Assembly (NCBI GenBank): GCA_030390025.1
Contig: JASTWF010000336.1
Coordinates: forward strand, 248,001-312,000
Length of the DNA stretch: 64,000 nt
Direction: 5' to 3'
DNA from: Squalus acanthias
Taxonomy: Eukaryota
Every line of letters begins with the position of its first letter. Within the stretch, counting starts at the first letter, position 1. Both the position numbers and the translations under genes were made by a program. The notes beneath the pieces were generated by a model, which did not search any database, had not been told where the DNA came from, and saw only the letters and a list, made by a program, of their open reading frames with translations. Positions 1-34,009 of this stretch are shown in pieces.

Positions 1-1
1 C

Positions 2-157: not shown

Positions 158-2896
158 GGGCTGCTGGCCGACGACGGATCTCTGGTCTCGGATCCGGAGG
201 GGATCAGCGCGGGGACCCGGGCCTATTACGGGGCTCTGTTCTCTCCGGATCCGTCCAGCGAGGATGCGCGCAGAGTTTTGTGGGAGGACCTGCCGAAGGT
301 CGGCCCGGAGGGCGCCGAAGAATTGGACGCTCCGCTAAGTTTGGCGGAGCTGACCGGCGCCCTGCGCCAGCTCTCGAGGGGAAAGTCCCCGGGGCTGGAC
401 GGGCTGACCGTGGAGTTCCACAGGGCGTTCTGGGACGTCTTGGGGGGCGACTACGCGCGGGTCCTGGGGGAAAGTCTGGCGACCGGGGAGATGCCCCTCT
501 CTTGGCGCAGGGCGGTTATCGTCCTGCTGTCCAAGAGGGGTGATCTCCGCCTTTTAAAAAACTGGCGCCCGGTCTCCCTCCTCAGCACGGACTATAAAAT
601 TTTTGCCAGGGCCATGTCTGCCCGCCTCGGCACCGTGCTGGCCCACATGATCCACCCCGACCAGTCCTACACGGTCCCGGGCCGGACAATCCACGACAAC
701 ATCCATCTGGTCCGGGACCTGGTCCACCTTTCCCAGAGGGCTGGTCTGTCGGTCGCCTTCCTTTCCCTGGATCAGGAGAAGGCGTTCGACAGGGTGGATC
801 ACGAGTATCTCTTCGGGACTCTGCGCGCATTCGGGTTCGGGACGCATTTCGTCGCCCGGATCCGACTTCTGTACACCGCCGCGGAGTGTCTCATTAAAGT
901 TAACGGGTCTTTGACGGCGCCCCTTCGCTTCGGGAGGGGGGTGCGTCAGGGATGCCCCATGTCCGGTCAGTTATATGCCGTTTGCGTGGAGCCTTTCCTG
1001 CGCCTCTTGCGGAAGAGGTTGACGGGACTGGCTCTGCAAGGGCCGGGCGTGGAGGTCGTCCTCTCGGCTTACGCCGATGACGTGCTCCTCATGGTCACGG
1101 ATCCCGTCGACCTGCGGAGGATGCGAGAATGCCAGCAGATTTACTCGGACGCATCCTCCGCCAGGATCAACTGGGAGAAATGTTCTGGACTCCTGGTGGG
1201 CCAGTGGCGGGTGGACTCCCTGCCGGAGGAGTTCAGGCCCTTTGCCTGGAGCACAACACACCTCCTCTACTTGGGAGTCTACCTCAGCCCTGCCGAGGAC
1301 ACCTGGCCGGCGAACTGGCAAGAGCTGGAGGCCAAGGTCACCGCTCGCCTAGGACGCTGGACGGGGTTGCTCCGAGTGTTGTCCTACAGGGGTCGAGCGC
1401 TGGTCATAAACCAGCTGGTGGCCGCCATGTTGTGGTACCGGTTGGTCACTTTGATCCCTCCCCCTGCGTTTGTCGCCAAGATACAGAAGATGCTCATCGA
1501 CTTCTTCTGGGACAAAAGGAAGCACTGGGTCTCTGCCGCGGTTCTGTGTCTCCCGCTTAGGGAGGGCGGTCAGGCGCTGGTGTGCCTTCGCACCCAGGCG
1601 GCGACTTTCCGTCTTCAGACGCTGCAGAGGTACCTTTACGTCGAGAATCCTCCCAGATGGTGTGCGCTGGCGACGTATTTCTTCCGCCAGATGCACGGCC
1701 TCAACTACGACACGCAGCTCCTGTTTGTGGAATTGGGCCGCACGCGAGCCTACCTGTGGGAGCTGCCTGTCTTTTACCAGGAACTGCTATGGGTCTGGAA
1801 CCAGGTCGCCTCCAGGCGGAGTTCTCCCCCGTCAGGAGTGGCGGCTCTCCTTCGGGAGCCGCTGTTCAGGAATCCGCACCTCCACGTCCGACGGATCGGC
1901 TGGCTGGCGGAGGGCAGGGCTGTGCCAGGCAAGGTGACCAGAGTCAGGGACCTGCTCGATGGCGGAGGAGCGGGCTGGATGGCGCCAGAGGAGTTGGCGC
2001 GGCGCCTCTCCTGGACAGACGTCTGGCGCGCGGCCAAAGCCATCGAGTTGCTGAAAGTGGCACTGGGCCCGGACTCCACTAGGTGTATCGAGGAGGCTCA
2101 AGCACGTGGGGCGATCCCGTCCGAACTGACCTCCGTTCGGACGGAATTCCTCATCGGCGCACGGCCCCGAAACCCCTCTCGGGAACCGGCGCCTCACAAC
2201 TTGAGCCGTCTCGGGGAAATGCCCTCCGTGCCCTTCAGTTCTGCACGGAGGGGTTTCCTGTACGGGCTGCTCCTGCACACTTTCCACTTTGTCATCTTCG
2301 CCTGCCGTCCGGACACGCCTTGGCGTGCCATCTTGCCGTCCGGCGGAGGCGAAGGTCCCCAATGGAGGGCTCTCTATGCGGGAGTACTCCCCTTTTCTAT
2401 TGGGGACATGGCCTGGAGGGTGTTGCACGGAGCAGTCCCGTGCAATCGGTTTTTAAGTAGGTTCACGGACTCCCAGGCCGCCTGTCTTTTTTGCGGCCTC
2501 GAGGAGTCCGTGTTCCACGTTTATGTGGAATGCGAGAGGTTGCAGCCCCTCTTTGAATATTTGAAGGGGCTGCTCCTCGCTTTTTGGTTGCACTTCAGTC
2601 CCACGCTCCTGATCTACGGTCACCCGGTGCGGAGGGGAGAGAGCAGGTCGGAGGACCTCCTCGTAGGACTGCTCCTGGGCCTGGCCAAAGTGGCCATTAA
2701 CAGGTCCAGGCAGCGGGCGGTCGAGGGGGTCGTTCGGCCCAATTGCCTGCCTCTCTTCCGCGGCTATGTTCGCGCCCGGGTGGCCCTGGAGATGGAGCAT
2801 GCGGTGTCCGCCGGCACACTTGAAGCCTTCCGAGACCGGTGGGCGCCGCAGGGACTGGAGTGCATCGTTTCCCCGGGAAATGTTATTTTAATTTAA
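158..2896 (+). CDS. Tx1-A1 ORF2, partial (RT plus C-terminal Cys domain, no endonuclease)
   Basis: Motifs KSPGLDG, WRPVSLL, LDQEKAFDRV, GVRQGCP, AYADD and CLFC...HVYVEC. Residues encoded before 158 in the ORF track are foreign sequence. Confidence 0.9.
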   Translation, partial: GLLADDGSLVSDPEGISAGTRAYYGALFSPDPSSEDARRVLWEDLPKVGPEGAEELDAPLSLAELTGALRQLSRGKSPGLDGLTVEFHRAFWDVLGGDYARVLGESLATGEMPLSWRRAVIVLLSKRGDLRLLKNWRPVSLLSTDYKIFARAMSARLGTVLAHMIHPDQSYTVPGRTIHDNIHLVRDLVHLSQRAGLSVAFLSLDQEKAFDRVDHEYLFGTLRAFGFGTHFVARIRLLYTAAECLIKVNGSLTAPLRFGRGVRQGCPMSGQLYAVCVEPFLRLLRKRLTGLALQGPGVEVVLSAYADDVLLMVTDPVDLRRMRECQQIYSDASSARINWEKCSGLLVGQWRVDSLPEEFRPFAWSTTHLLYLGVYLSPAEDTWPANWQELEAKVTARLGRWTGLLRVLSYRGRALVINQLVAAMLWYRLVTLIPPPAFVAKIQKMLIDFFWDKRKHWVSAAVLCLPLREGGQALVCLRTQAATFRLQTLQRYLYVENPPRWCALATYFFRQMHGLNYDTQLLFVELGRTRAYLWELPVFYQELLWVWNQVASRRSSPPSGVAALLREPLFRNPHLHVRRIGWLAEGRAVPGKVTRVRDLLDGGGAGWMAPEELARRLSWTDVWRAAKAIELLKVALGPDSTRCIEEAQARGAIPSELTSVRTEFLIGARPRNPSREPAPHNLSRLGEMPSVPFSSARRGFLYGLLLHTFHFVIFACRPDTPWRAILPSGGGEGPQWRALYAGVLPFSIGDMAWRVLHGAVPCNRFLSRFTDSQAACLFCGLEESVFHVYVECERLQPLFEYLKGLLLAFWLHFSPTLLIYGHPVRRGESRSEDLLVGLLLGLAKVAINRSRQRAVEGVVRPNCLPLFRGYVRARVALEMEHAVSAGTLEAFRDRWAPQGLECIVSPGNVILI

Positions 2897-2918
2897 TGCA
2901 CTCCAAGTTGTCCGCTTC

Positions 2919-3330
2919 GCAGAAGGCCCAAGGTGGAAGACCCGGAGGAGAGTGGCCTGGGCGGGAGGCCCAGCACGGAGAACCCCAGGCGGGGGGCCCA
3001 GGGCGGGGCGGCTGGTCGGCAGAGGTGGAGTCAGGAGATGCGGTTGCTTCACCCCGGGTGCTCGTGGGGAATGCCGGTGCGGAGGGTCCGGTGCAGAAGG
3101 CCCAAGGTGGAAGACCCAGAGGAGAGTGGCCTGGGCGGGAGGCCCAGCACGGAGAACCCCAGGCGGGGGGCCCAGGGCGGGGCGGCTGGTCGGCAGAGGT
3201 GGAGTCGGGAGATGCGGTTGATTCACCCCGGCTGCTCGCGGGGAATGCCGGTGCGGAGGGTCCGGTGCAGAAGGCCCAAGGTGGAAGACCCGGAGGAGAG
3301 TGGCCTGGGCGGGAGGCCCAGCACGGAGAA
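2919..3330 (+). repeat. 174-bp G-rich tandem repeat (about 2.4 units) in the Tx1-A 3' UTR
   Basis: GCAGAAGGCCCAAGG starts at 2919, 3093 and 3267. Confidence 0.92.
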
Positions 3331-4634
3331 CAATTGAGTGGATGGTCGGGTGGGTGGTGCCAGTGGGACTGGCGCAGAACAGGTTTCTTGGGTTATTGGA
3401 GTGGATGTTATATGTGGCATTTAGTTGGATTGTGATGGTGCTATGTGTTTGTACACTGTGGTGTTGAAATGGGTTGTTTTATGTGGAGTTAAGTGAGATG
3501 TATTATTTTAATATAAAAAAAAGTGTGGTATTGTTTGGGGGTATTTGTACTGTATTTTGATGGATGAATGTAATGGTTTTACTATGTAATTTGTATTATT
3601 GGTTTGAATAAAAGATTCACCCCGAGTGCGGTCCCAGGCGAGGACAGACGGAGGCAGAGGCTGAGGCTGCGAGGGACTCAGCTCAACTTGGTGCTACGTG
3701 AACGGGTGAGCGCCGTTTGCTGAGAAGAGGAGGGGAAAGGAGAGGTCTCTTTTCTCTGTGCCTAGAAGGAGAAGGAGCCACGAAGGACAGAGTGGAGACC
3801 TTTCCACCTCCACCACGCCTGCAGCTACAGCTACAACCACGACTGCTGCTGAGGTGAGAGAGGAGAGGAGAGGAGAGAGAGGAGACCAGCAACAACAGAG
3901 GGAAGCCTTTCCATCACTGCCTCCCCAACTGGTCTCCATTTCGAGAGAGGGAGAGAGGGGAGAACAAGACCAACATCTGCTTGGAAGGAGGGAGAGCGAG
4001 CCATCGAGAAGGAAAACAACATCGAGAGGTGGGTGTTAAAAAGGGCACTCTCCAAAAGACTTTGTATTTGAGGTGGGGGGAGGAAAGAAGAAGGAGAAGA
4101 CCGGGATAGCAAGGGGAGTGTGTGTGGCTCTTGCTAACAACTCGGCCACACACACCATCAACAAGCACCCCTTGCCTATTGCTTCACATTTTAGAACATT
4201 GTTAAGACCTGGTTGTAGACTGAGCCTGGGCATCTCCAGCTTTATTTTTTCCCAGGTGAAGACATCTTCTCCCCCCACCAGAAGAACATCAACAAAGACT
4301 TGTATTACATCGGAGAGTGCACCCCCCCCCAGGAGGCACCCACCCACCCACTATCCTGAGTGGCGAATAGGCCCGTGCGGCTTTCCTCCTTCCCACCCCC
4401 TCTCTCTCTCTCTCTCTGCCTCTCTCTAACGAGGCACCTCAAACCTTATTTATTACCCAATTGAGCAGAGGGGAGAAGGCCACTCCCAATTCCAATCATA
4501 AAAGGGAGAGGTGTGCCTTCTTTTTCTCAAAACAACCCCCTCTGCTCGGGGGAAAAGACAAAAAAACCCAAGGCCACTTAAACATCACCCGGCCTGTGAC
4601 TTGGGGTGGGTGTAGCCCTTTATACCACCTCAGT

Positions 4635-6723
4635 ATGGCGAGCACATCTTCGCCGGCGGCGGGGCAAGCAAGGTCGTACGCGGGTGTGGCAGCCACGGCC
4701 ACAGCTGGTCCCGCTGCTTCTGCTGCCCCGTCACCTTTCAGGCTATTGACAAAAAAGCTGGGGGTGAAGAGCTACACTCACCCCAACATGACCATAGAGG
4801 CTTGCGTCAAAGCCATGGCTGGGGTAATCGGCCCCTCAGCCATCGTTGCGGCCTCTAAAATGTACGGTAAGGCTGTGTTCTTCCTGCGGTCGGAGCGGGC
4901 GGTGTCCCTGGCCGTCACCGAGGGGCTCACCGTGGGCGGGACCTTCCTGCCGGTGGATCCGCTCGAGGCCACCGAGCAGCGACTCATACTATCGAATGTC
5001 CCGCCCTTTGTTCCGGTTGAGCTCCTCCTCCCCCACCTACGTCAACTGGGGGAGGTGAGGTCGGGGATTAATCCGATCCCGCTCGGCTGCAGGGAGGCCA
5101 GCCTCCGGCACGTCTTCTCCTTCCGGCGCCAGCTGTTTATCCAGCTGGCGCGGGAGGAAGACACGGAAGGCGCATTTAGCATAACACACGAGGGGACCGC
5201 CTACCGCGTCTTCTGGACGTCGGACGGTGTGCGGTGCCACGCCTGTAAGGAGGTGGGGCACATAAGAAAGAACTGCCCCGCCTCCAAGGCCGCCAAAGCA
5301 TCTGAGGCGGCCAAGGCTGGCGCCGCCGCCGCTCCTCCCCCTGTTTCTGTCCGCGCGTCTGCGACACCCGATGCGCGGTCGACGCCGGAGGTCAACGCCG
5401 TCGCGGCCTCCGGCGAAGGGGAGGGGGAGCGTCCGACTGGAAGGAAGGCGCGGAGCAAAAGCAAACACCTTCAGGCGGGTCCCCTTCACATATATGATGA
5501 CTTACCCGAGCTTACGCCCCTACACCTTGCGCGGGTGGCGGCGGAGTTCGAGAATGCGAGGGACCTTGTGCCCGGGCCTGCGCCCGCATCCGCCAAGGCG
5601 GCAAAATCGAGACCTGCGGCCGTGACCGGGCCCGGGACCCCCGAGCAGACCGATCGACAGGGGGGAGCGGAGGTGGAGGCCTCGGTATGCATGGAGGTCT
5701 CCCAACCTTCGTGTCCCTCCTCTTCGAAAAGGAGGCGCGACATCCTGGATGAGGGGGAGGACCGCGAGGAACGGGGTCCCCCCTCGCAAGGGGAGTCGTT
5801 GCCCGCCGCGGGTGCTGCGCCCCCCCCCACCGACACCATCACCGACATCCGGCAGGGGCCGCCTGTCCCCCGGGAGGGCATGACAGATGAGTCTGTCCAG
5901 CCTGTGCCTCCCGGGGATGGGGGAGAGGCCCTGCTCATGGGGGGGGGCCGCGGAACTACCCGCGGTGGGGAGTTACGCTGATCCGTTGTTTCTCGCCAGG
6001 TCGGGCATCCTGGGGACCGGGGCGGGCGAGGCCGATGAGGCAGAGCCCGCCGTGTACGGTCAGGACCACTCCCAGGCACTGCTCGACCTGGTTGAGCAAT
6101 ATAACCAGGGTACCTGGTCCGCTGGGTCGGAGGATGGTGGCGGTGAAGGGGAAGGCCCCCTGACTCCGTCTGCGACGCTGGCGCCGGGGTTGTTGAGGGA
6201 ACTGGCACTAATGTGCTCCCCGGTTTCCCTGTGCACCCCGGTGCCGGGGGCGGAGGGGGGCCCCGAGCCGCCGCCGCTTCCTGACCCGGCGCCTCTGGAG
6301 GAGCCCAGGGAGGACTCCTCTGCTGCCGATCCTGGGGGTGGGATCGGGGCAGAGGTAGGGCTGGCCGATGGCGACCCCCCGGAGGAGGACGGGGACCCGG
6401 CGGAGGACACTGAGGATGATATGGAATCCGTCGCCAGTGAGGCGGCGGATGCCCTCGTGCCCTCCTCCGGGTCCCCCCTCATCCCCGTTGTGGAACTCCG
6501 GGACTTTGTGGCCATGGGCCAGGGTCGCCAGGATATAATCCGGCTGGCCATCGATAAATGGTCGGATCTGGCGCTGCTCGTTTGCTCCGTCCGCGCCGCA
6601 GTCAAAACCATGGGCGCGGACGGGGGCGTGGGCCTGGCCGAGCGGCGTCGGATCCAGAATTTCCTCGCTGGGCTTGGAAGGGAGTGGCGGTCGACTAGCG
6701 GCCGCGCTCCCTCCTCCCGTTAG
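4635..6723 (+). pseudogene. Tx1-A2 ORF1 (Gag-like, CCHC knuckle), +1 frameshift
   Basis: Starts MASTSS and contains CHACKEVGHIRKNC. The G run at 5939-5947 has 9 G versus 8 in the open A3 copy, which may be a homopolymer error. Confidence 0.85.
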
Positions 6724-6754
6724 AGTAAGGTAGAGGTTGCACTATGCTCTTGTC

Positions 6755-9700
6755 ATGAAGATAACCATAGCCAGCCTCAACATCAACGGCAGCAGAGAGG
6801 CACGCCGTAGATTTAATAACTTCTCGTCCCTTCGGGAAGGGAGGCATGCGGTGTGCTTCCTGCAGGAAACTCACACCGTTCCGGGAGACGAGGCCACGTG
6901 GCTCCTGGAGTGGCGAGGAGGGGTCAGCATGAGTCACCTCTCCAACGTTTCCGGTGGGGTGGCTATCTTGCTGGCCCCGCATTTTCAGCCGGAGATCTTG
7001 GGGGTCAAGGAGCATGTGCCGGGCCGCTTGCTCCAGGTCACTGTTCGTCTGGGGGGCGTGCCGCTCCATTTAGTGAACGTGTACGCCCCCCAGCCCGGTG
7101 CGCAGCAAGTGCGCTTCTTCGATGAAGTGTCCGCTCTTCTGGGCACCGTCGACGTCGGCGAGTGCATCATCCTCGGGGGGGATTTTAATTGTACCCTCGA
7201 GGCGAGGGACCGTTCGGGCCCTCCGCGAAGCCTGACGGCGACGGTGAAGTTGAGGGACCTGGTCGGGTCCTTCGACTTGGTGGACGTCTGGCGAAATCTC
7301 CATCCCGACTCCAGCGCCTTCACTTGGGTGGGGTCTGGAGGAGGAAGGTCCAGAATCGACCGCCTTTATATTTCCCGGGCGTACGTCTCCTGCGTTCCGG
7401 CGGCTTCCATGCGGCCGGTGCCGTGCACGGACCACCACCTGGTGTGGGCGGAGCTCGCTCCGCTGCAGGCGCCGGGGGGGTCCGCGTACTGGCATTTTAA
7501 CAACCTGCTGCTGGAGGACGTGCGGTTCCGGGATTCGTTTCGCCGGTTCTGGGCCGACTGGAGAAGGAAGCAGGGGGGCTTCCCCTCCTTGAGGCTATGG
7601 TGGGACGTGGGCAAGGCTCACGTCCGTCTCTTCTGTCAGGAGTACGCGAAGGGGTCGACCAAGAGGCGGGAGGCCCGGGTCGGGCGATTGGAGAAAGAAG
7701 TGCTCGACCTGGAGTCCCGTCTCGGTCAAGTCGTCGAAGACCCGGCCCTGCGGAAGGTGTACGAAGAGAAGAAGGGCGCGCTGAAGGACCTGCAGCTGGT
7801 CGGGTCCCGAGGCGCGTACGTGAGGTCGCGGATCCAGTTCCTGCGGGACCTGGACCGCGGCTCCCCCTTCTTCTACTCGCTGGAAAAAAGACGAGGGGTC
7901 CGTAAGCAGCTCTTGGGGCTGCTGGCCGACGACGGATCTCTGGTCTCGGATCCGGAGGGGATCAGCGCGGGGACCCGGGCCTATTACGGGGCTCTGTTCT
8001 CTCCGGATCCGTCCAGCGAGGATGCGCGCAGAGTTTTGTGGGAGGACCTGCCGAAGGTCGGCCCGGAGGGCGCCGAAGAATTGGACGCTCCGCTAAGTTT
8101 GGCGGAGCTGACCGGCGCCCTGCGCCAGCTCTCGAGGGGAAAGTCCCCGGGGCTGGACGGGCTGACCGTGGAGTTCCACAGGGCGTTCTGGGACGTCTTG
8201 GGGGGCGACTACGCGCGGGTCCTGGGGGAAAGTCTGGCGACCGGGGAGATGCCCCTCTCTTGGCGCAGGGCGGTTATCGTCCTGCTGCCCAAGAGGGGTG
8301 ATCTCCGCCTTTTAAAAAACTGGCGCCCGGTCTCCCTCCTCAGCACGGACTATAAAATTTTTGCCAGGGCCATGTCTGCCCGCCTCGGCACCGTGCTGGC
8401 CCACATGATCCACCCCGACCAGTCCTACACGGTCCCGGGCCGGACAATCCACGACAACATCCATCTGGTCCGGGACCTGGTCCACCTTTCCCAGAGGGCT
8501 GGTCTGTCGGTCGCCTTCCTTTCCCTGGATCAGGAGAAGGCGTTCGACAGGGTGGATCACGAGTATCTCTTCGGGACTCTGCGCGCATTCGGGTTCGGGA
8601 CGCATTTCGTCGCCCGGATCCGACTTCTGTACGCCGCCGCGGAGTGTCTCATTAAAGTTAACGGGTCTTTGACGGCGCCCCTTCGCTTCGGGAGGGGGGT
8701 GCGTCAGGGATGCCCCATGTCCGGTCAGTTATATGCCGTTTGCGTGGAGCCTTTCCTGCGCCTCTTGCGGAAGAGGTTGACGGGACTGGCTCTGCAAGGG
8801 CCGGGCGTGGAGGTCGTCCTCTCGGCTTACGCCGATGACGTGCTCCTCATGGTCACGGATCCCGTCGACCTGCGGAGGATGCGAGAATGCCAGCAGATTT
8901 ACTCGGACGCATCCTCCGCCAGGATCAACTGGGAGAAATGTTCTGGACTCCTGGTGGGCCAGTGGCGGGTGGACTCCCTGCCGGAGGAGTTCAGGCCCTT
9001 TGCCTGGAGCACAACACACCTCCTCTACTTGGGAGTCTACCTCAGCCCTGCCGAGGACACCTGGCCGGCGAACTGGCAAGAGCTGGAGGCCAAGGTCACC
9101 GCTCGCCTAGGACGCTGGACGGGGTTGCTCCGAGTGTTGTCCTACAGGGGTCGAGCGCTGGTCATAAACCAGCTGGTGGCCGCCATGTTGTGGTACCGGT
9201 TGGTCACTTTGATCCCTCCCCCTGCGTTTGTCGCCAAGATACAGAAGATGCTCATCGACTTCTTCTGGGACAAAAGGAAGCACTGGGTCTCTGCCGCGGT
9301 TCTGTGTCTCCCGCTTAGGGAGGGCGGTCAGGCGCTGGTGTGCCTTCGCACCCAGGCGGCGACTTTCCGTCTTCAGACGCTGCAGAGGTACCTTTACGTC
9401 GAGAATCCTCCCAGATGGTGTGCGCTGGCGACGTATTTCTTCCGCCAGATGCACGGCCTCAACTACGACACGCAGCTCCTGTTTGTGGAATTGGGCCGCA
9501 CACGAGCCTACCTGTGGGAGCTGCCTGTCTTTTACCAGGAACTGCTATGGGTCTGGAACCAGGTCGCCTCCAGGCGGAGTTCTCCCCCGTCAGGAGTGGC
9601 GGCTCTCCTTCGGGAGCCGCTGTTCAGGAATCCGCACCTCCACGTCCGACGGATCGGCTGGCTGGCGGAGGGCAGGGCTGTGCCAGGCAAGGTGACCAGA

Positions 9701-10655
9701 GTCAGGGACCTGCTCGATGGCGGAGGAGCGGGCTGGATGGCGCCAGAGGAGTTGGCGCGGCGCCTCTCCTGGACAGACGTCTGGCGCGCGGCCAAAGCCA
9801 TCGAGTTGCTGAAAGTGGCACTGGGCCCGGACTCCACTAGGTGTATCGAGGAGGCTCAAGCACGTGGGGCGATCCCGTCCGAACTGACCTCCGTTCGGAC
9901 GGAATTCCTCATCGGCGCACGGCCCCGAAACCCCTCTCGGGAACCGGCGCCTCACAACTTGAGCCGTCTCGGGGAAAATGCCCTCCGTGCCCTTCAGTTC
10001 TGCACGGAGGGGTTTCCTGTACGGGCTGCTCCTGCACACTTTCCACTTTGTCATCTTCGCCTGCCGTCCGGACACGCCTTGGCGTGCCATCTTGCCGTCC
10101 GGCGGAGGCGAAGGTCCCCAATGGAGGGCTCTCTATGCGGGAGTACTCCCCTTTTCTATTGGGGACATGGCCTGGAGGGTGTTGCACGGAGCAGTCCCGT
10201 GCAATCGGTTTTTAAGTAGGTTCACGGACTCCCAGGCCGCCTGTCTTTTTTGCGGCCTCGAGGAGTCCGTGTTCCACGTTTATGTGGAATGTGAGAGGTT
10301 GCAGCCCCTCTTTGAATATTTGAAGGGGCTGCTCCTCGCTTTTTGGTTGCACTTCAGTCCCACGCTCCTGATCTACGGTCACCCGGTGCGGAGGGGAGAG
10401 AGCAGGTCGGAGGACCTCCTCGTAGGACTGCTCCTGGGCCTGGCCAAAGTGGCCATTAACAGGTCCAGGCAGCGGGCGGTCGAGGGGGTCGTTCGGCCCA
10501 ATTGCCTGCCTCTCTTCCGCGGCTATGTTCGCGCCCGGGTGGCCCTGGAGATGGAGCATGCGGTGTCCGCCGGCACACTTGAAGCCTTCCGAGACCGGTG
10601 GGCGCCGCAGGGACTGGAGTGCATCGTTTCCCCGGGAAATGTTATTTTAATTTAA
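6755..10655 (+). pseudogene. Tx1-A2 ORF2 (APE endonuclease-RT), +1 frameshift near 9975
   Basis: Motifs SLNING, LQETH, GGDFN, SRIDR, TDH and YADD. GGGGAAAATG here versus GGGGAAATG in A1 and A3. Confidence 0.88.
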
Positions 10656-10677
10656 TGCACTCCAAGTTGTCCGCTTC

Positions 10678-25162: not shown

Positions 25163-26757
25163 AATGGAGGGTTCTTTAAGGGCTACACTCACCCCAAGTC
25201 ACAGGCCTGAAGGTGTTAATGGCCTTGGTTTTTTTTGTTTTAGTTTTCCCCTGAGCAGAGGGAGCTCTTAAATTGAAGGCACACCTCTCCCTTTAGTTGA
25301 TTGAATTGGGAGAGGGGCCTTCTCCCCTCTGCTCAATGGGTACTTAATTAAAAATAGATGAGGTGCCTCTTAGAGAGAGAGGCAGAGAGAGACAAGAGAC
25401 AAAGAGAGAGAGAGAGGGGGTGGAAGGAGGGAAGCCGCAAGGGCAGGGTCGCCACTCAGGATGGTGGGTGGGTGGGTGTTGGCAGGGGGGTGCACTCTCC
25501 GATGTAATACAAGTCTTTGGTGGTGGTCTTCTGGTGGGGGGAGAAGATGTCTTCACCTGGGATAGCTGGAGATGCCCAGGCTCAGTCCTGCACCAGGTCT
25601 TAACGATGCCCAATAATATTAAGTTAATTGGGGACTTCACCTAGGCAGCTCCAGCTGTCCCAGGTCAGGCAATAGAAAGGGGGTGTTTAATATGGTGTGT
25701 GCGGCCTAGCTTTTACAAAAGCCACACACACACACCCCGAGTGCGGTCCCAGGCGAGGACAGACGGAGGCAGAGGCTGAGGCTGCGAGGGACTCAGCTCA
25801 ACTTGGTGCTGCGTGAACGGGTGAGCGCCGTTTGCTGAGAAGAGGAGGGGAAAGGAGAGGTCTCTTTTCTCTGTGCCTAGAAGGAGAAGGAGCCACGAAG
25901 GACAGAGTGGAGACCTTTCCACCTCCACCACGCCTGCAGCTACAGCTACAACCACGACTGCTGCTGAGGTGAGAGAGGAGAGGAGAGGAGAGGAGAGAGA
26001 GGAGACCAGCAACAACAGAGGGAAGCCTTTCCATCACTGCCTCCCCAACTGGTCTCCATTTCGAGAGAGGGAGAGAGGGGAGAACAAGACCAACATCTGC
26101 TTGGAAGGAGGGAGAGCGAGCCATCGAGAAGGAAAACAACATCGAGAGGTGGGTGTTAAAAAGGGCACTCTCCAAAAGACTTTGTATTTGAGGTGGGGGG
26201 AGGAAAGAAGAAGGAGAAGACCGGGATAGCAAGGGGAGTGTGTGTGGCTCTTGCTAACAACTCGGCCACACACACCATCAACAAGCACCCCTTGCCTATT
26301 GCTTCACATTTTAGAACATTGTTAAGACCTGGTTGTAGACTGAGCCTGGGCATCTCCAGCTTTATTTTTTCCCAGGTGAAGACATCTTCTCCCCCCACCA
26401 GAAGAACATCAACAAAGACTTTATTTATCATCGAAGAGTGCCCCCCCCCCCAGGAGGCACCCACCCACCCACTATCCTGAGTGGCGAATAGGCCCGTGCG
26501 GCTTTCCTCCTTCCCACCCCCTCTCTCTCTCTCTCTCTCTGCCTCTCTCTAACGAGGCACCTCAAACCTTATTTATTACCCAATTGAGCAGAGGGGAGAA
26601 GGCCACTCCCAATTCCAATCATAAAAGGGAGAGGTGTGCCTTCTTTTTCTCAAAACAACTCCCTCTGCTCGGGGGAAAAGACAAAAAAACCCAAGGCCAC
26701 TTAAACATCACCCGGCCTGTGACTTGGGGTGGGTGTAGCCCTTTATACCACCTCAGT

Positions 26758-28845
26758 ATGGCGAGCACATCTTCGCCGGCGGCGGGGCAAGCAAGGTCGT
26801 ACGCGGGTGTGGCAGCCACGGCCACAGCTGGTCCCGCTGCTTCTGCTGCCCCGTCACCTTTCAGGCTATTGACAAAAAAGCTGGGGGTGAAGAGCTACAC
26901 TCACCCCAACATGACCATAGAGGCTTGCGTCAAAGCCATGGCTGGGGTAGTCGGCCCCTCAGCCATCGTTGCGGCCTCTAAAATGTACGGTAAGGCTGTG
27001 TTCTTCCTGCGGTCGGAGCGGGCGGTGTCCCTGGCCGTCACCGAGGGGCTCACCGTGGGCGGGACCTTCCTGCCGGTGGATCCGCTCGAGGCCACCGAGC
27101 AGCGACTCATACTATCGAATGTCCCGCCCTTTGTTCCGGTTGAGCTCCTCCTCCCCCACCTACGTCAACTGGGGGAGGTGAGGTCGGGGATTAATCCGAT
27201 CCCGCTCGGCTGCAGGGAGGCCAGCCTCCGGCACGTCTTCTCCTTCCGGCGCCAGCTGTTTATCCAGCTGGCGCGGGAGGAAGACACGGAAGGCGCATTT
27301 AGCATAACACACGAGGGGACCGCCTACCGCGTCTTCTGGACGTCGGACGGTGTGCGGTGCCACGCCTGTAAGGAGGTGGGGCACATAAGAAAGAACTGCC
27401 CCGCCTCCAAGGCCGCCAAAGCATCTGAGGCGGCCAAGGCTGGCGCCGCCGCCGCTCCTCCCCCTGTTTCTGTCCGCGCGTCTGCGACACCCGATGCGCG
27501 GTCGACGCCGGAGGTCAACGCCGTCGCGGCCTCCGGCGAAGGGGAGGGGGAGCGTCCGACTGGAAGGAAGGCGCGGAGGAAAAGCAAACACCTTCAGGCG
27601 GGTCCCCTTCACATATATGATGACTTACCCGAGCTTACGCCCCTACACCTTGCGCGGGTGGCGGCGGAGTTCGAGAATGCGAGGGACCTTGTGCCCGGGC
27701 CTGCGGCCGCATCCGCCAAGGCGGCAAAATCGAGACCTGCGGCCGTGACCGGGCCCGGGACCCCCGAGCAGACCGATCGACAGGGGGGAGCGGAGGTGGA
27801 GGCCTCGGTATGCATGGAGGTCTCCCAACCTTCGTGTCCCTCCTCTTCGAAAAGGAGGCGCGACATCCTGGATGAGGGGGAGGACCGCGAGGAACGGGGT
27901 CCCCCCTCGCAAGGGGAGTCGTTGCCCGCCGCGGGTGCTGCGCCCCCCCCCACCGACACCATCACCGACATCCGGCAGGGGCCGCCTGTCCCCCGGGAGG
28001 GCATGACAGATGAGTCTGTCCAGCCTGTGCCTCCCGGGGATGGGGGAGAGGCCCTGCTCATGGGGGGGGCCGCGGAACTACCCGCGGTGGGGAGTTACGC
28101 TGATCCGTTGTTTCTCGCCAGGTCGGGCATCCTGGGGACCGGGGCGGGCGAGGCCGATGAGGCAGAGCCCGCCGTGTACGGTCAGGACCACTCCCAGGCA
28201 CTGCTCGACCTGGTTGAGCAATATAACCAGGGTACCTGGTCCGCTGGGTCGGAGGATGGTGGCGGTGAAGGGGAAGGCCCCCTGACTCCGTCTGCGACGC
28301 TGGCGCCGGGGTTGTTGAGGGAACTGGCACTAATGTGCTCCCCGGTTTCCCTGTGCACCCCGGTGCCGGGGGCGGAGGGGGGCCCCGAGCCGCCGCCGCT
28401 TCCTGACCCGGCGCCTCTGGAGGAGCCCAGGGAGGACTCCTCTGCTGCCGATCCTGGGGGTGGGATCGGGGCAGAGGTAGGGCTGGCCGATGGCGACCCC
28501 CCGGAGGAGGACGGGGACCCGGCGGAGGACACTGAGGATGATATGGAATCCGTCGCCAGTGAGGCGGCGGATGCCCTCGTGCCCTCCTCCGGGTCCCCCC
28601 TCATCCCCGTTGTGGAACTCCGGGACTTTGTGGCCATGGGCCAGGGTCGCCAGGATATAATCCGGCTGGCCATCGATAAATGGTCGGATCTGGCGCTGCT
28701 CGTTTGCTCCGTCCGCGCCGCAGTCAAAACCATGGGCGCGGACGGGGGCGTGGGCCTGGCCGAGCGGCGTCGGATCCAGAATTTCCTCGCTGGGCTTGGA
28801 AGGGAGTGGCGGTCGACTAGCGGCCGCGCTCCCTCCTCCCGTTAG
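26758..28845 (+). CDS. Tx1-A3 ORF1, intact (695 aa from the ATG)
   Basis: Conserved N-terminal domain, CCHC knuckle and long Pro/Ala/Glu-rich tail. Confidence 0.88.
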   Translation: MASTSSPAAGQARSYAGVAATATAGPAASAAPSPFRLLTKKLGVKSYTHPNMTIEACVKAMAGVVGPSAIVAASKMYGKAVFFLRSERAVSLAVTEGLTVGGTFLPVDPLEATEQRLILSNVPPFVPVELLLPHLRQLGEVRSGINPIPLGCREASLRHVFSFRRQLFIQLAREEDTEGAFSITHEGTAYRVFWTSDGVRCHACKEVGHIRKNCPASKAAKASEAAKAGAAAAPPPVSVRASATPDARSTPEVNAVAASGEGEGERPTGRKARRKSKHLQAGPLHIYDDLPELTPLHLARVAAEFENARDLVPGPAAASAKAAKSRPAAVTGPGTPEQTDRQGGAEVEASVCMEVSQPSCPSSSKRRRDILDEGEDREERGPPSQGESLPAAGAAPPPTDTITDIRQGPPVPREGMTDESVQPVPPGDGGEALLMGGAAELPAVGSYADPLFLARSGILGTGAGEADEAEPAVYGQDHSQALLDLVEQYNQGTWSAGSEDGGGEGEGPLTPSATLAPGLLRELALMCSPVSLCTPVPGAEGGPEPPPLPDPAPLEEPREDSSAADPGGGIGAEVGLADGDPPEEDGDPAEDTEDDMESVASEAADALVPSSGSPLIPVVELRDFVAMGQGRQDIIRLAIDKWSDLALLVCSVRAAVKTMGADGGVGLAERRRIQNFLAGLGREWRSTSGRAPSSR

Positions 28846-28876
28846 AGTAAGGTAGAGGTTGCACTATGCTCTTGTC

Positions 28877-31800
28877 ATGAAGATAACCATAGCCAGCCTC
28901 AACATCAACGGCAGCAGAGAGGCACGCCGTAGATTTAATAACTTCTCGTCCCTTCGGGAAGGGAGGCATGCGGTGTGCTTCCTGCAGGAAACTCACACCG
29001 TTCCGGGAGACGAGGCCACGTGGCTCCTGGAGTGGCGAGGAAGGGTCAGCATGAGTCACCTCTCCAACGTTTCCGGTGGGGTGGCTATCTTGCTGGCCCC
29101 GCATTTTCAGCCGGAGATCTTGGGGGTCAAGGAGCATGTGCCGGGCCGCTTGCTCCAGGTCACTGTTCGTCTGGGGGGCGTGCCGCTCCATTTAGTGAAC
29201 GTGTACGCCCCCCAGCCCGGTGCGCAGCAAGTGCGCTTCTTCGATGAAGTGTCCGCTCTTCTGGGCACCGTCGACGTCGGCGAGTGCATCATCCTCGGGG
29301 GGGATTTTAATTGTACCCTCGAGGCGAGGGACCGTTCGGGCCCTCCGCGAAGCCTGACGGCGACGGTGAAGTTGAGGGACCTGGTCGGGTCCTTCGACTT
29401 GGTGGACGTCTGGCGAAATCTCCATCCCGACTCCAGCGCCTTCACTTGGGTGGGGTCTGGAGGAGGAAGGTCCAGAATCGACCGCCTTTATATTTCCCGG
29501 GCGTACGTCTCCTGCGTTCCGGCGGCTTCCATGCGGCCGGTGCCGTGCACGGACCACCACCTGGTGTGGGCGGAGCTCGCTCTGTTGCAGGCGCCGGGGG
29601 GGTCCGCGTACTGGCATTTTAACAACCTGCTGCTGGAGGACGTGCGGTTCCGGGATTCGTTTCGCTGGTTCTGGGCCGACTGGAGAAGGAAGCAGGGGGG
29701 CTTCCCCTCCTTGAGGCTATGGTGGGACGTGGGCAAGGCTCACGTCCGTCTCTTCTGTCAGGAGTACGCGAAGGGGTCGACCAAGAGGCGGGAGGCCCGG
29801 GTCGGGCGATTGGAGAAAGAAGTGCTCGACCTGGAGTCCCGTCTCGGTCAAGTCGTCGAAGACCCGGCCCTGCGGAAGGTGTACGAAGAGAAGAAGGGCG
29901 CGCTGAAGGACCTGCAGCTGGTCGGGTCCCGAGGCGCGTACGTGAGGTCGCGGATCCAGTTCCTGCGGGACCTGGACCGCGGCTCCCCCTTCTTCTACTC
30001 GCTGGAAAAAAGACGAGGGGTCCGTAAGCAGCTCTTGGGGCTGCTGGCCGACGACGGATCTCTGGTCTCGGATCCGGAGGGGATCAGCGCGGGGACCCGG
30101 GCCTATTACGGGGCTCTGTTCTCTCCGGATCCGTCCAGCGAGGATGCGCGCAGAGTTTTGTGGGAGGACCTGCCGAAGGTCGGCCCGGAGGGCGCCGAAG
30201 AATTGGACGCTCCGCTAAGTTTGGCGGAGCTGACCGGCGCCCTGCGCCAGCTCTCGAGGGGAAAGTCCCCGGGGCTGGACGGGCTGACCGTGGAGTTCCA
30301 CAGGGCGTTCTGGGACGTCTTGGGGGGCGACTACGCGCGGGTCCTGGGGGAAAGTCTGGCGACCGGGGAGATGCCCCTCTCTTGGCGCAGGGCGGTTATC
30401 GTCCTGCTGCCCAAGAGGGGTGATCTCCGCCTTTTAAAAAACTGGCGCCCGGTCTCCCTCCTCAGCACGGACTATAAAATTTTTGCCAGGGCCATGTCTG
30501 CCCGCCTCGGCACCGTGCTGGCCCACATGATCCACCCCGACCAGTCCTACACGGTCCCGGGCCGGACAATCCACGACAACATCCATCTGGTCCGGGACCT
30601 GGTCCACCTTTCCCAGAGGACTGGTCTGTCGGTCGCCTTCCTTTCCCTGGATCAGGAGAAGGCGTTCGACAGGGTGGATCACGAGTATCTCTTCGGGACT
30701 CTGCGCGCATTCGGGTTCGGGACGCATTTCGTCGCCCGGATCCGACTTCTGTACGCCGCCGCGGAGTGTCTGATTAAAGTTAACGGGTCTTTGACGGCGC
30801 CCCTTCGCTTCGGGAGGGGGGTGCGTCAGGGATGCCCCATGTCCGGTCAGTTATATGCCGTTTGCGTGGAGCCTTTCCTGCGCCTCTTGCGGAAGAGGTT
30901 GACGGGACTGGCTCTGCAAGGGCCGGGCGTGGAGGTCGTCCTCTCGGCTTACGCCGATGACGTGCTCCTCATGGTCACGGATCCCGTCGACCTGCGGAGG
31001 ATGCGAGAATGCCAGCAGATTTACTCGGACGCATCCTCCGCCAGGATCAACTGGGAGAAATGTTCTGGACTCCTGGTGGGCCAGTGGCGGGTGGACTCCC
31101 TGCCGGAGGAGTTCAGGCCCTTCGCCTGGAGCACAACACACCTCCTCTACTTGGGAGTCTACCTCGGCCCTGCCGAGGACACCTGGCCGGCGAACTGGCA
31201 AGAGCTGGAGGCCAAGGTCACCGCTCGCCTAGGACGCTGGACGGGGTTGCTCCGAGTGTTGTCCTACAGGGGTTGAGCGCTGGTCATAAACCAGCTGGTG
31301 GCCGCCATGTTGTGGTACCGGTTGGTCACTTTGATCCCTCCCCCTGCGTTTGTCGCCAAGATACAGAAGATGCTCATCGACTTCTTCTGGGACAAAAGGA
31401 AGCACTGGGTCTCTGCCGCGGTTCTGTGTCTCCCGCTTAGGGAGGGCGGTCAGGCGCTGGTGTGCCTTCGCACCCAGGCGGCGACTTTCCGTCTTCAGAC
31501 GCTGCAGAGGTACCTTTACGTCGAGAATCCTCCCAGATGGTGTGCGCTGGCGACGTATTTCTTCGGCCAGATGCACGGCCTCAACTACGACACGCAGCTC
31601 CTGTTTGTGGAATTGGGCCACACGCGAGCCTACCTGTGGGAGCTGCCTGTCTTTTACCAGGAACTGCTATGGGTCTGGAACCAGGTCGCCTCCAGGCGGA
31701 GTTCTCCCCCGTCAGGAGTGGCGGCTCTCCTTCGGGAGCCGCTGTTCAGGAATCCGCACCTCCACGTCCGACGGATCGGCTGGCTGGCGGAGGGCAGGGC

Positions 31801-32776
31801 TGTGCCAGGCAAGGTGACCAGAGTCAGGGACCTGCTCGATGGCGGAGGAGCGGGCTGGATGGCGCCAGAGGAGTTGGCGCGGCGCCTCTCCTGGGCAGAC
31901 GTCTGGCGCGCGGCCAAAGCCATCAAGTTGCTGAAAGTGGCACTGGGCCCGGACTCCACTAGGTGTATCGAGGAGGCTCAAGCACGTGGGGCGATCCCGT
32001 CCGAACTGACCTCCGTTCGGACGGAATTCCTCATCGGCGCACGGCCCCGAAACCCCTCTCGGGAACCGGCGCCTCACAACTTGAGCCGTCTCGGGGAAAT
32101 GCCCTCCGTGCCCTTCAGTTCTGCACGGAGGGGTTTCCTGTACGGGCTGCTCCTGCACACTTTCCACTTTGTCATCTTCGCCTGCCGTCCGGACACGCCT
32201 TGGCGTGCCATCTTGCCGTCCGGCGGAGGCGAAGGTCCCCAATGGAGGGCTCTCTATGCGGGAGTACTCCCCTTTTCTATTGGGGACATGGCCTGGAGGG
32301 TGCTGCACGGAGCAGTCCCGTGCAATCGGTTTTTAAGTAGGTTCACGGACTCCCAGGCCGCCTGTCTTTTTTGCGGCCTCGAGGAGTCCGTGTTCCACGT
32401 TTATGTGGAATGTGAGAGGTTGCAGCCCCTCTTTGAATATTTGAAGGGGCTGCTCCTCGCTTTTTGGTTGCACTTCAGTCCCACGCTCCTGATCTACGGT
32501 CACCCGGTGCGGAGGGGAGAGAGCAAGTCGGAGGACCTCCTCGTAGGACTGCTCCTGGGCCTGGCCAAAGTGGCCATTAACAGGTCCAGGCAGCGGGCGG
32601 TCGAGGGGGTCGTTCGGCCCAATTGCCTGCCTCTCTTCCGCGGCTATGTTCGCGCCCGGGTGGCCCTGGAGATGGAGCATGCGGTGTCCGCCGGCACACT
32701 TGAAGCCTACCGAGACCGGTGGGCGCCGCAGGGACTGGAGTGCATCGTTTCCCCGGGAAATGTTATTTTAATTTAA
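28877..32776 (+). pseudogene. Tx1-A3 ORF2 with a premature stop
   Basis: CGA changed to TGA at 31274-31276; the frame is otherwise continuous. Confidence 0.9.
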
Positions 32777-32798
32777 TGCACTCCAAGTTGTCCGCTTC

Positions 32799-33210
32799 GC
32801 AGAAGGCCCAAGGTGGAAGACCCGGAGGAGAGTGGCCTGGGCGGGAGGCCCAGCACGGAGAACCCCAGGCGGGGGGCCCAGGGCGGAGCGGCTGGTCGGC
32901 AGAGGTGGAGTCAGGAGATGCGGTTGCTTCACCCCGGGTGCTCGTGGGGAATGCCGGTGCGGAGGGTCCGGTGCAGAAGGCCCAAGGTGGAAGACCCAGA
33001 GGAGAGTGGCCTGGGCGGGAGGCCCAGCACGGAGAACCCCAGGCGGGGGGCCCAGGGCGGGGCGGCTGGTCGGCAGAGGTGGAGTCGGGAGATGCGGTTG
33101 ATTCACCCCGGCTGCTCGCGGGGAATGCCGGTGCGGAGGGTCCGGTGCAGAAGGCCCAAGGTGGAAGACCCGGAGGAGAGTGGCCTGGGCGGGAGGCCCA
33201 GCACGGAGAA
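32799..33210 (+). repeat. 174-bp tandem repeat in the A3 3' UTR
   Basis: Copy of 2919-3330. Confidence 0.9.
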
Positions 33211-33911
33211 CAATTGAGTGGATGGTCGGGTGGGTGGTGCCAGTGGGACTGGCGCGGAACAGGTTTCTTGGGTTATTGGAGTGGATGTTATATGTGGCAT
33301 TTAGTTGGATTGTGATGGTGCTATGTGTTTGTACACTGTGGTGTTGAAATGAGTTGTTTTATGTGGAGTTAAGTGAGATGTATTATTTTAATATAAAAAA
33401 AAGTGTGGTATTGTTTGGGGGTATTTGTACTGTATTTTGATGGATGAATGTAATGGTTTTACTATGTAATTTGTATTATTGGTTTGAATAAAAGATTCAC
33501 ACACACACACACCCCTTGGATGTTCCGGCCTTCTTCTTTTTCTTCTTTCCTCCCCCCACCTACAAAACAAAGTCTCTGGGAGAGTGCCCCAGAATCACAC
33601 CCACCTGTAGCTGTTGTTCTTTCCTTCCTCCCTCCTTCCAAACAGATGATGTTTGTTGTTGATGTTTTCTCCCCTCTCTCCCTCTCCTGAAATGGAGGCC
33701 AATTGAGGAGGCAGTGTGGAAAGGCCTCTCCTCTGTTGTTAATGGCCTTGGCCTTCCTTTCCTTCTCCTTCTCCTTCTCCTGTCCTGTCCTCTCTCTCCA
33801 GGCACCTCAGTAGTGGTTGTTGGTTGGTGGTGGTCTGCTGTCTGGTCTCCTTCTCCTTTTCCTGCTCACAGAGACCACCACTCTGCTGCTGCTGCTGCTG
33901 CTGCTCCTCAC

Positions 33912-34009
33912 AAGCTTGTGATTTCAAATAAAGCTGTTGGACTATAACCTGGTGTTGTGCGACTTCTCACTTTTGTCCACCCCAGTCCAACACCGGCATC
34001 TCCACATCA
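33912..34009 (+). mobile_element. 3' end of the host Penelope-like terminal repeat (pLTR)
   Basis: The 46-bp unit continues TGCGACTTCTCACTTTTGTCCACCCCAGTCCAACACCGGCATCTCCACATCA, matching the reverse complement of 55288-55385 at the Penelope terminus. Confidence 0.88.

Follow-up and report, generated by a model that had tools for sequence, protein, structure and literature searches.

Tx1-clade elements that target other transposons have already been described (Kojima 2015, PMC4494074). In Xenopus, Tx1L inserts in Tx1D, a DNA transposon (Christensen et al. 2000, cited in PMC4494074), and in crocodilians the families Tx1-Mar, Tx1-9_AMi, Tx1-8_Crp and Tx1-4_AMi prefer sites in Mariner, Harbinger or LTR retrotransposons (Kojima 2015, PMC4494074). 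Microsatellite-specific Tx1 families are also on record, Kibi for (TC)n and Koshi for (TTC)n (Kojima and Fujiwara 2004, cited in PMC4494074).

Here, we describe a locus of Squalus acanthias at which two Tx1-clade families, A and B, are associated with each other and with the 3′ tail of a Penelope-like element (PLE). B resembles Tx1L in that both are Tx1-clade LINEs that encode an AP-type endonuclease and insert at one site inside another transposon. Unlike Tx1L, whose host is a DNA transposon, B has the PLE tail, part of a retroelement, as its host, A is hosted by the 5′UTR of its sister LINE, and the 5′ leader of B is a copy of its target. Tandem insertions that sandwich a duplicated target are common to A/B and the crocodilian families, whose list in PMC4494074 holds neither PLE-class nor same-LINE-clade targets. 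In our literature search, neither a PLE tail nor the 5′UTR of a sister LINE came up as a target. The class of transposon-targeting Tx1 elements was already in print (PMC4494074). The novelty lies in the targets alone, which extend the list known for Tx1 by two classes, the tail of a PLE and the 5′UTR of a sister LINE.

Anatomy of the composite block

The window, the whole stretch of 64,000 nucleotides that was analyzed, contains one continuous block at positions 158–34011 (33.9 kb), delimited by self-comparison and direct reading. Its ends agree within 2 bp with the span first annotated, 158–34009. The block comprises three A copies on the plus strand (5′-truncated A0, A1 and A2), three B copies on the minus strand (the fragment B0, B1 and B2) and a 54-bp PLE tail, in the order PLE tail, B2 with A2, B1, B0 with A1, then A0.

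A0 (158–3617; 3,460 bp) corresponds to A1 positions 7916–11376, and its left flank (1–157 plus 800 bp upstream on the contig) bears no relation to A, B or PLE. At its 3′ end, CA+CCCC (3618–3623, plus strand) leads into the A1 head (GAGTGCGG...), with no B sequence. A1 is full-length (3624–11376), with an ORF1 split into 4461–5981 and 5887–6723 and an ORF2 (6737–10219) that stops early, at 1160 aa versus 1305 in B. Its 3′ junction, (CA)2CCCC (11377–11384, plus strand), is followed by B0 (11385–11832), the first ~448 bp of B, made up of a 46-nt leader (11787–11832) and the 5′UTR as far as the A site. The remainder of B0 is missing, as is the upstream part of the PLE, and A0 abuts unrelated DNA.

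B1 is full-length (11833–19012; 7,180 bp including the leader), and both its ORF2 (11899–15816, 1305 aa) and its ORF1 (16176–18011, 611 aa) are open. Its A site is empty, with (CA)7CCCC at 18543–18560, and its leader 46-mer lies at 18967–19012. The 3′ part of B2 (19013–25738), with open ORF2 (19081–22998) and ORF1 (23357–25192), ends in the left copy of the A site, (CA)6CCCC at 25723–25738. There, within the B2 5′UTR and antisense to it, sits full-length A2 (25739–33497), whose ORF1 (26584–28845) is open and whose ORF2 is in two pieces (28859–31276 and 31298–32776). The 3′ junction of A2, (CA)7CCCC (33498–33515, plus strand), is the right copy of the A site, and the 5′ part of B2 (33516–33957) supplies the start of the 5′UTR and the 46-nt leader (33912–33957). 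The PLE tail (33958–34011, PLE sense on the plus strand) is a 54-bp 3′ tail, after which the PLE stops and an unrelated flank begins.

All three A 3′ ends are thus directly followed by (CA)nCCCC. The claim that all three lie at such a site of the B 5′UTR applies to A1 and A2, where the next bases (TTGGATG...) are antisense B 5′UTR, and fails for A0, where the A1 head comes next.

A and B are sister families

ORF2 is nearly unchanged between A and B (93% amino acid identity), ORF1 is 62% identical, and the 5′UTR, ORF1 and 3′UTR of A are all distinct from their B counterparts. The A 3′UTR terminates in ...AATAAAAGATT(CA)n. In Pfam searches, both ORF2 products matched Exo_endo_phos (residues 12–233) and RVT_1 (518–767), ORF1 matched zf-CCHC, and zf-RVT in B ORF2 reached 23.7 bits, under its 27.5 cut-off. 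B ORF2 aligns with the Xenopus 'Transposon TX1 uncharacterized 149 kDa protein' at 50% identity and 99% coverage (1387 bits), which agrees with the original assignment of A and B as Tx1-clade sisters. In our best explanation, which we consider probable as a whole, A and B are a pair of young sister lineages within the Tx1 clade of non-LTR retrotransposons.

B inserts at one site in the PLE tail

The exact-end censuses of both families used exact end words and therefore cover young copies only. Genome-wide, 48 of 51 such B 3′ ends run into PLE-tail sequence CAACACCAGG, the PLE tail continuing with at most one mismatch in 41 of the 51; the other three have no match to CAACACCAGG. The 46-mer opens 18 of 20 fetched B 3′ flanks, beyond which lie PLE proper (8), another B (9) or an inverted target (1), and the remaining two flanks have CAACAC alone in common. 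In another five B 3′ ends, the 46-mer follows in every case. On the 5′ side, more than 20 loci show PLE tail and then unique flanks that differ from locus to locus. B is antisense in the PLE, which is abundant, ~51–54 bp from the PLE end, with its insertion point between ...GAGAAGTCGCA and CAACACCAGGTTATAG..., and its last bases (GAGCAACAC) overlap the CAACAC of the target. The specificity of B for this one PLE-tail site is high and strongly supported.

B copies often bring their own leader

The three 46-mers of the window are identical. The 24-mer at the start of the 46-mer occurs five times in the window against 0 expected, the remaining two occurrences being inside a PLE fragment at 55.3–57.8 kb with an RT/GIY-YIG-type ORF. 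Further PLE tail adjoins only the copy at 33912–33957; the other two sit between B copies. Full-length B copies start with a leader of 18–53 nt, 46 nt in the window, whose sequence is that of the target immediately downstream of where B inserts. In three of five left/right pairs, the left 46-mer has B-lineage variants and is 3–6 positions off the local target, with all differences falling after position 24. A C-variant is found in left copies at 19 of 23 loci versus right copies at 3 of 12 (Fisher p = 0.002). Two left/right pairs are identical or nearly so, which is compatible with true duplication too. The first-pass annotation had all three B 5′ ends abut the same 46 bp of the PLE. The sequence is indeed the same, but it is often B-borne, not copied from the local target as resident PLE, and hence only in part a target-site duplication.

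The 5′ joining of R1- and R2-type elements is reportedly aided by target homology or co-transcription (Eickbush; Fujimoto 2004, cited in PMC4494074). Similarly, B RNA apparently begins with target-identical sequence, which could guide precise 5′ joining. Unlike in R1/R2, the B leader copies target downstream of the insertion point, and the result is a direct repeat.

Arrays and independent insertions

B copies are spaced ~7.17–7.20 kb apart at many loci, up to six in a row. Arrays of more than 30 kb, as had been predicted, are represented by the 33.9-kb block, and similar arrays are common genome-wide. A serious possibility, although one we rate as short of probable, is that unequal crossing-over or segmental duplication multiplied a few primary insertions and accounts for most of the growth of the block and similar arrays, in place of repeated targeted insertion into the rebuilt site. 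The unit at 3618–11832 matches that at 25733–33957 at 99.2%, and the B0 and B2 leaders differ at 0 of 436 aligned bases, compared with 0.41% in the A bodies (A1 versus A2, 32/7,750). Genome-wide, 48 of 52 A–A junctions are identical in form (CA+CCCC), many being located on small contigs, and arrays of identical short units are known for both families in this genome. Within the window, the A1/B0 and A2/B2 junctions may be a single event that was later duplicated.

However, B1 and B2 are 1.2% apart and differ in 3′UTR subtype (GACAAACC...GAG versus GTCAAACC...GAT), the (CA)n count is unlike at each junction (1, 2 and 7), and outer flanks vary between loci. Genome-wide, the A parts are far younger than their host B leaders: in pairwise comparison of 15 loci, A parts are 99.60% alike, while the adjacent B leaders are 93.48% alike, with a minimum of 87.69%. 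Because of this divergence, the (CA)n variation, the younger A and the differing flanks, primary targeted insertion is needed in any case. The A insertions are independent events, younger than the host B copies. Since A recurs in the B 5′UTR site at many loci with differing outer flanks, one event followed by duplication, which had been named as the outcome that would undo the targeting chain, is insufficient genome-wide and may apply to the A1/B0 and A2/B2 pair of the window.

A prefers a site in the B 5′UTR

The favored single genomic site of A is (CA)nCCCC, ~410–460 bp into the B 5′UTR and antisense to B. In the exact-end census, 32 of 233 A 3′ ends lie at this site, with (CA)1–7 (median 2), and 52 abut an A-type head. 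Top-scoring samples exaggerate the specificity of A: 15 of the best 30 A 3′ ends run into the B 5′UTR site and nine into an A-type head, and at 12 of 20 sampled A 5′ ends the sequence just before A is the remaining half of the B 5′UTR, ending in (CA)5–10CCCC. Flanks were classified for the 193 of 265 matches that were listed, 183 being kept after ten probable chance matches were set aside. Among these 183 listed A ends, ~86 (47%) have diverse flanks, mostly short C-rich sites starting CC or CCC, 28 belong to arrays of short A fragments, and the B site accounts for only 26. A is also found in CA-rich satellites and A-like 5′UTR sites. At least 40 A sites in B 5′UTRs are empty, and exact (CA)5CCCC+TTRGATG sites number 794.

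Insertion of A into the B 5′UTR is therefore a strong preference, not strict specificity. The proposed chain is upheld for B into the PLE tail and has to be relaxed for A. Kojima 2015 (PMC4494074) regards a family as target-specific if one flank type exceeds 20%. B is clearly above this value (48/51). For A, the B site alone falls short (14%, 32/233), and 20% is passed only through tandem junctions (A-type heads, 22%, 52/233; pooled, 84/233).

The diverse ends, together with A in satellites and A-like 5′UTR sites, could mean that A has no true affinity for B, that CA-CCC(C) microhomology with the RNA tail suffices and that the B 5′UTR is a frequent carrier of the motif. The motif itself is not enriched, with 9,276 genome occurrences of (CA)5CCCC, not above the reversed control (13,469). 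We consider this explanation quite unlikely, as B-type sites make up 794 of the 9,276 exact (CA)5CCCC sites (8.6%) and yet hold 27 of 50 sampled junctions (binomial p = 2e-16) and 32 of all 233 exact A ends (p = 0.005). The excess is much greater still against the millions of CACCCC hexamers.

Simple repeats are targets in other families as well; Mino, of the R1 clade, is specific for (AC)n. A resembles Kibi, Koshi and Mino in the logic of simple-repeat pairing, having a (CA)n tail and landing in (CA)n-containing sites. Unlike them, it requires CCCC after the repeat and favors one embedded copy, and ordinary CA microsatellites are not its main location.

That an A-in-B composite spreads as a unit, through B RNA with a nested A or through dispersed segmental duplication, would fit one junction type at 32 places; it is highly improbable given A parts 99.6% alike against B leaders at 93.5%, down to 87.7%, (CA)n that ranges from 1 to 7 and a site that is empty in many B copies. 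Equally improbable is that repeats were collapsed or mis-joined during assembly: at 530 kb the contig is small, it is rich in repeats, and one attempt found no junction-bridging reads or contigs, with heterogeneous loose ends at 34010/34011 in four runs, but the junctions recur on at least 25 contigs, chromosome-scale ones included, with locus-specific flanks and repeat counts.

Proposed mechanism

Probably, A and B are young Tx1 sisters that use target-primed reverse transcription at preferred sequences inside other mobile elements. ORF1 has a CCHC knuckle, and ORF2 joins an AP-type endonuclease and a reverse transcriptase to a putative zinc-binding tail. For B, we infer that base-pairing is possible between the nicked PLE-sense strand (...CCTGGTGTTG-3′) and the B RNA 3′ end, as the last B bases overlap the target CAACAC. 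Since the leader copies the downstream target, each insertion would restore the target on both sides, and the restored target could then give rise, by repeated insertion, to head-to-tail B arrays with a ~7.18-kb period. A would insert at CA-CCC(C) sequences and duplicate CCCC plus a few CA units, rebuilding its site and generating A–A tandems. Through such rebuilt targets, single insertions would grow into arrays tens of kilobases long, a process relevant to the assembly and annotation of large repeat-rich genomes.

A more tentative proposal, somewhat unlikely when all its parts are taken jointly, is that A is a hyperparasite derived from a B-like ancestor. A would have kept ORF2 with little change and acquired a new 3′UTR whose (CA)n tail moved it from the PLE tail to a similar-looking nick site within the 5′UTR of its sister (...GGTGTTG versus ...GGTGTGTG), and B would have captured a piece of PLE as a homing leader. 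The A site in B would then have the presumed B promoter on one side and ORF1 on the other. On this view, Tx1 targets would be set by pairing of the RNA 3′ tail, not by the endonuclease, and sister LINE lineages would compete through mutual disruption.

Site-specific LINEs attract study both as natural 'safe-harbour' integrators and as models on which programmable insertion tools can be built. With 93% identical ORF2 and differing targets and 3′ tails, the A/B pair offers a natural experiment on target choice, asking whether the enzyme, RNA-tail pairing or a target-derived leader decides in AP-endonuclease LINEs.

The Penelope-like element

Two 5′-truncated PLE fragments lie inverted at 55289–57790 (55326–55842 versus 57764–57262), with an ORF on the minus strand (P0001, 57291 to 55660) and unoccupied B targets at 55340–55385 (plus) and 57705–57750 (minus). 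The ORF scored 27.2 bits for RVT_1, below the 29.6 cut-off, and gave no GIY-YIG match in local Pfam. Its relatives are ~960 aa long with RVT_1, and PF01541 (GIY-YIG) is present in 32 of the 120 relatives listed. By eye, the ORF C-terminus has VVYLIRC...YIGET, which we take to be a GIY-YIG-type endonuclease motif. The target had been called a PLE terminal repeat (pLTR), which is too loose: it is the PLE 3′ tail, and the window has no direct pLTR arrangement and no pseudo-LTR from partial tandem PLE copies, as the fragments are inverted and the 54-bp tail alone adjoins B2. A hammerhead ribozyme search returned no Rfam match at E ≤ 1 (10 loci) or E ≤ 10 (window positions 55280–55480). By eye, the PLE tail has a CTGA(C/A)GA...GAAA core beside the palindromic AAGCTT. 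At least 40 empty PLE tails, at 99–100% identity, are dispersed over the chromosomes.

Structure of the nested block

The nested chain proposed in the first-pass annotation, with family A inserted in family B and B inserted in the tail of a Penelope-like element (PLE), is real and well supported, its B step being highly specific and its A step preferential. Self-comparison and direct reading of the junctions show that positions 158–34011 form one nested block made of two 7–8 kb elements, with a G+C content of ~56–67% compared to 38–50% in the remaining window. Family A is present on the + strand as A0 (158–3617), which is 5′-truncated, A1 (3624–11376) and A2 (25739–33497). Family B is present on the − strand as B0 (11385–11832), only the first ~448 bp of the element, a complete B1 (11833–19012) and B2, whose two parts (19013–25738 and 33516–33957) enclose A2. 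A 54-bp PLE 3′ tail (33958–34011) lies at the right. The PLE and B lie in opposite orientations, as do B and A.

All three A 3′ ends in the window read ...AATAAAAGATT(CA)nCCCC, with n = 1, 2 and 7. Downstream of A1 and A2 lies the B 5′ UTR in antisense, while beyond the A0 site the head of A1 begins. The A site, a (CA)nCCCC stretch antisense to B in the B 5′ UTR, is unbroken in B1 (18543–18560), and a left copy of it (25723–25738) precedes the head of A2. The target-like 46-mers before the three B bodies are identical. The junctions had thus been read correctly from the sequence alone, coordinates included.

DNA left of position 158 (window 1–157 and 800 bp upstream, G000:C2628:247201–248000, locus L116) has no relation to A, B or the PLE, and the remainder of B0 is missing, indicating that the block is cut off at the left by deletion or rearrangement. 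The upstream part of the PLE is also absent from the block. No Logan contig listed for four runs bridges any junction with at least 31 letters on both sides, so the array order is that given by the assembly. Contigs of these runs pile up to very high depth over the 46-mer and the PLE tail, and past 34010/34011 their continuations are heterogeneous. Elsewhere on the window's contig, one A-in-B locus occurs twice, in opposite orientation and with the same outer flank (G000:C2628:119207 and 511511; L010, L011), reflecting either a large inverted duplication or a duplicate made in assembly.

Identity of the three elements

ORF2 of both A and B contains an AP-type endonuclease and a reverse transcriptase, and ORF1 a CCHC knuckle; zf-RVT was matched in B alone, weakly and under that model's cut-off. 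B ORF2 shares 50% identity over 99% of its length with the Xenopus laevis Tx1 149-kDa protein, supporting the Tx1 assignment. Judged by sequence comparison, A and B are sister elements. Identity is 93% between their ORF2 products (1,080 aa compared, ~22 of the differences falling within residues 1–240) and 62% between their ORF1 products; at the DNA level the 5′ regions are ~78% identical and the 3′ UTRs unrelated. Both ORFs are open in B1 and B2, and one or more ORFs are interrupted in every A copy of the window.

The third element is classed as a PLE through the relatives of P0001, an ORF (57291->55660) adjoining two unoccupied B targets. These relatives are ~960 aa long with RVT_1, and 32 of the 120 listed also carry GIY-YIG. 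Membership is assigned in this way because P0001 itself falls slightly under the Pfam RVT_1 cut-off and a search of the PLE tails against Rfam returned no hammerhead, only false matches resembling miRNA hairpins that are attributable to palindromic PLE dimers. Such tail dimers were seen at other loci (L067, L069, L109).

B is highly specific for the PLE tail

The shark's own 3.7-Gb genome was searched with the B sequence alone. Among 20 B 3′ flanks fetched from 49 matches, 18 start with the 46-mer CAACACCAGGTTATAGTCCAACAG.TTTATTTGAAATCACAAGCTT, which leads into PLE proper (8), the next B (9) or an inverted target (1); the remaining two match it in CAACAC only. The 46-mer was also present at five of five further B 3′ ends, selected because their 5′ sides were known. 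In an unbiased census, the exact end of young B copies occurs at 51 places, 48 of them followed by CAACACCAGG; 41 of the 51 run on as PLE tail (16–17 nt, at most one mismatch), and 3 do not match. At the 5′ end of B, unique flank, PLE tail, leader and B follow one another in that order at more than 20 loci, whose outer flanks are mutually unrelated. Empty PLE tails are plentiful and young, the best 40 matches being 99–100% identical and scattered across chromosomes. Together, the 3′ flank sample, the exact-end census, the 5′ flanks and the free targets establish that B is highly site-specific and that its home is the PLE tail; tabulation of the flanks hence bears out the predicted B-into-PLE step.

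Carriage of PLE sequence by B into non-PLE sites through 5′ transduction was considered on the basis of ~7 loci with merely 12–17 bp of PLE at the left, and was rejected at the two loci tested (L102 and L104), where the B 3′ flanks are PLE proper.

Origin of the 46 bp

Left and right copies of the 46-mer were compared around single young B insertions. In three pairs (L107/L073, L115/L069 and L110/L078), the left copy carries B-lineage variants (CTTTATTTGAAATCAC or CTTGATTTG) and differs from the local PLE at 3–6 positions, all past position 24. In two others (L112/L071 and L114/L067), left and right copies agree (0–1 difference). The first-pass annotation had taken the 46 bp to be resident Penelope terminal repeat (pLTR), which is not the picture these pairs give. 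From the same comparison, a plain target-site duplication was rejected as the whole explanation.

B subfamilies have fixed, distinct 5′ junctions (46|GTGAGG, 46|GTGGTG, 46+TCGGAGCTGCTGAC... and 18|TCAGCAGCC), and just 18 bp separate the units in an array of 5′-truncated B. A C-variant occurs in left copies at 19 of 23 loci and in right copies at 3 of 12 (p = 0.002), although the test is weakened by the differing ages of the B cohorts from which the two samples come. We infer that a PLE-derived leader opens the B RNA. This putative leader may aid 5′ joining, and the true duplication at B insertions would be short, at most ~18–24 bp. The array of truncated units (G000:C8:141706280–141710909, L101) consists of tandem ~332-bp units, each with 314 bp of B 3′ end and 18 bp of target (CAACACCAGGTTATAGTC), and resembles a satellite that arose from a 5′-truncated B insertion.

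A prefers the B 5′ UTR

The best-scoring A 3′ ends adjoin the B 5′ UTR site in 15 of 30 cases and an A-type head in 9, and the other half of the B 5′ UTR precedes 12 of 20 A 5′ ends among the best-scoring matches. The high specificity suggested by these two samples is tempered by a census of the exact 19-mer A end, which gave 233 places, with the B site at 32 and an A-type head at 52; identical CA+CCCC form was seen at 48 of these 52 A-head junctions. Genome-wide, B-type sites make up 794 of 9,276 exact (CA)5CCCC sites. The B site is clearly over-used by A.

The 15-mer A end occurs at 265 places; flanks were classed at 193 of these, 10 of which are probably chance matches. The 183 listed ends that remain comprise 26 at the B 5′ UTR site, 29 at an A-type head, 28 in arrays of short A fragments, 14 at other CA-C-rich sites of A- or B-like 5′ UTRs, and ~86 (47%) with diverse flanks, mostly starting with CC or CCC. 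Over-use of the B site thus upholds the predicted A-into-B targeting, while the diverse flanks make it a strong preference with many off-site copies rather than a strict rule.

The last 1,200 bp of A at 15 A-in-B loci are 99.60% alike pairwise (minimum 99.13%), while the adjacent 400 bp of B leader at the same loci are 93.48% alike (minimum 87.69%). The A insertions are recent events, independent of one another. Right junctions have 1 to 7 CA units (median 2), and the left copy retains 5–10. This asymmetry fits either priming within the repeat or a duplication that takes in CCCC and a few CA units. The best 40 B-site matches are all uninterrupted, in a ranking that favours full matches and hence gives no occupancy rate.

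In A's own 5′ UTR, the antisense equivalent of the B site (window 4110–4130) reads (CA)n-T-CCCC, with one interrupting base; A insertions were found in A-like copies with an intact site (L092; C3:41998332). The arrays of short A 3′-end fragments (G000:C4:43928402–43935394 and several places on C3806) are joined by CACCCC+AATCGG... at a spacing of ~140–670 bp; with ~28 of the A ends listed, they raise the apparent copy number. Some A 3′ ends (e.g. G000:C3:163562787, C8:126539894, C8:128284721, C2:76040906 and C1780:176375) continue with a few of the usual downstream bases (CCCCGA.. or CCCCTTGG) before a poly(A) run sets in; a poly(A)-dependent LINE may have retro-copied these from read-through A transcripts. 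A head variant, GAGTGCGGCCCCAGGCCCCATTATTAAAACACTCAACATTATCC..., departs from the A 5′ UTR after ~30 bp (past the A 3′ end in L043, L058 and L060, and on many small contigs) and may represent a third related or non-autonomous family sharing the A head.

Array growth

A and B insertions would each rebuild their own target on both sides, from which head-to-tail arrays are expected. In many loci B copies recur at a spacing of ~7.17–7.20 kb, in runs of up to six, and A–A junctions lie ~7.8–8.0 kb apart directly upstream on the window's contig, where an A array occupies contig positions ~203–235 kb. Unequal crossing-over surely also contributes. No difference separates the B0 and B2 leaders in 436 aligned bases, against 32 differences in 7,750 between A1 and A2, and the A1/B0 and A2/B2 pair may have arisen by duplication. 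Divergence between B1 and B2 is 1.2%, and their 3′ UTR subtypes are different.

Comparison with known Tx1 targets

Transposon-targeting Tx1 elements are already known from families described in Kojima 2015 (PMC4494074), among them families preferring Mariner, Harbinger and LTR retrotransposons, and Tx1L, which sits in piggyBac-type Tx1D. The same source includes Kibi and Koshi as microsatellite-specific Tx1, and tandem Tx1 insertions that sandwich a duplicated target. A search confined to full-text literature found no Tx1 targeting a PLE or the 5′ UTR of another LINE, and no three-level targeting chain. The best use of A and B is as a natural comparison of what determines target choice in AP-endonuclease LINEs.

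Other features of the window

Two 5′-truncated PLE fragments (55326–55842 and 57262–57764) are joined head-to-head as a 95.9% inverted repeat. A 428-aa ORF on the − strand (47958–49244) matches RVT_1 clearly (E = 1e-25) and marks another retroelement. Tandem-repeat tracts, long, diverged and strongly skewed in AT and GC, lie at ~49.8–53.5 kb, 57.8–59.4 kb and 60.2–61.2 kb, and the three are interrelated at 72–88%.
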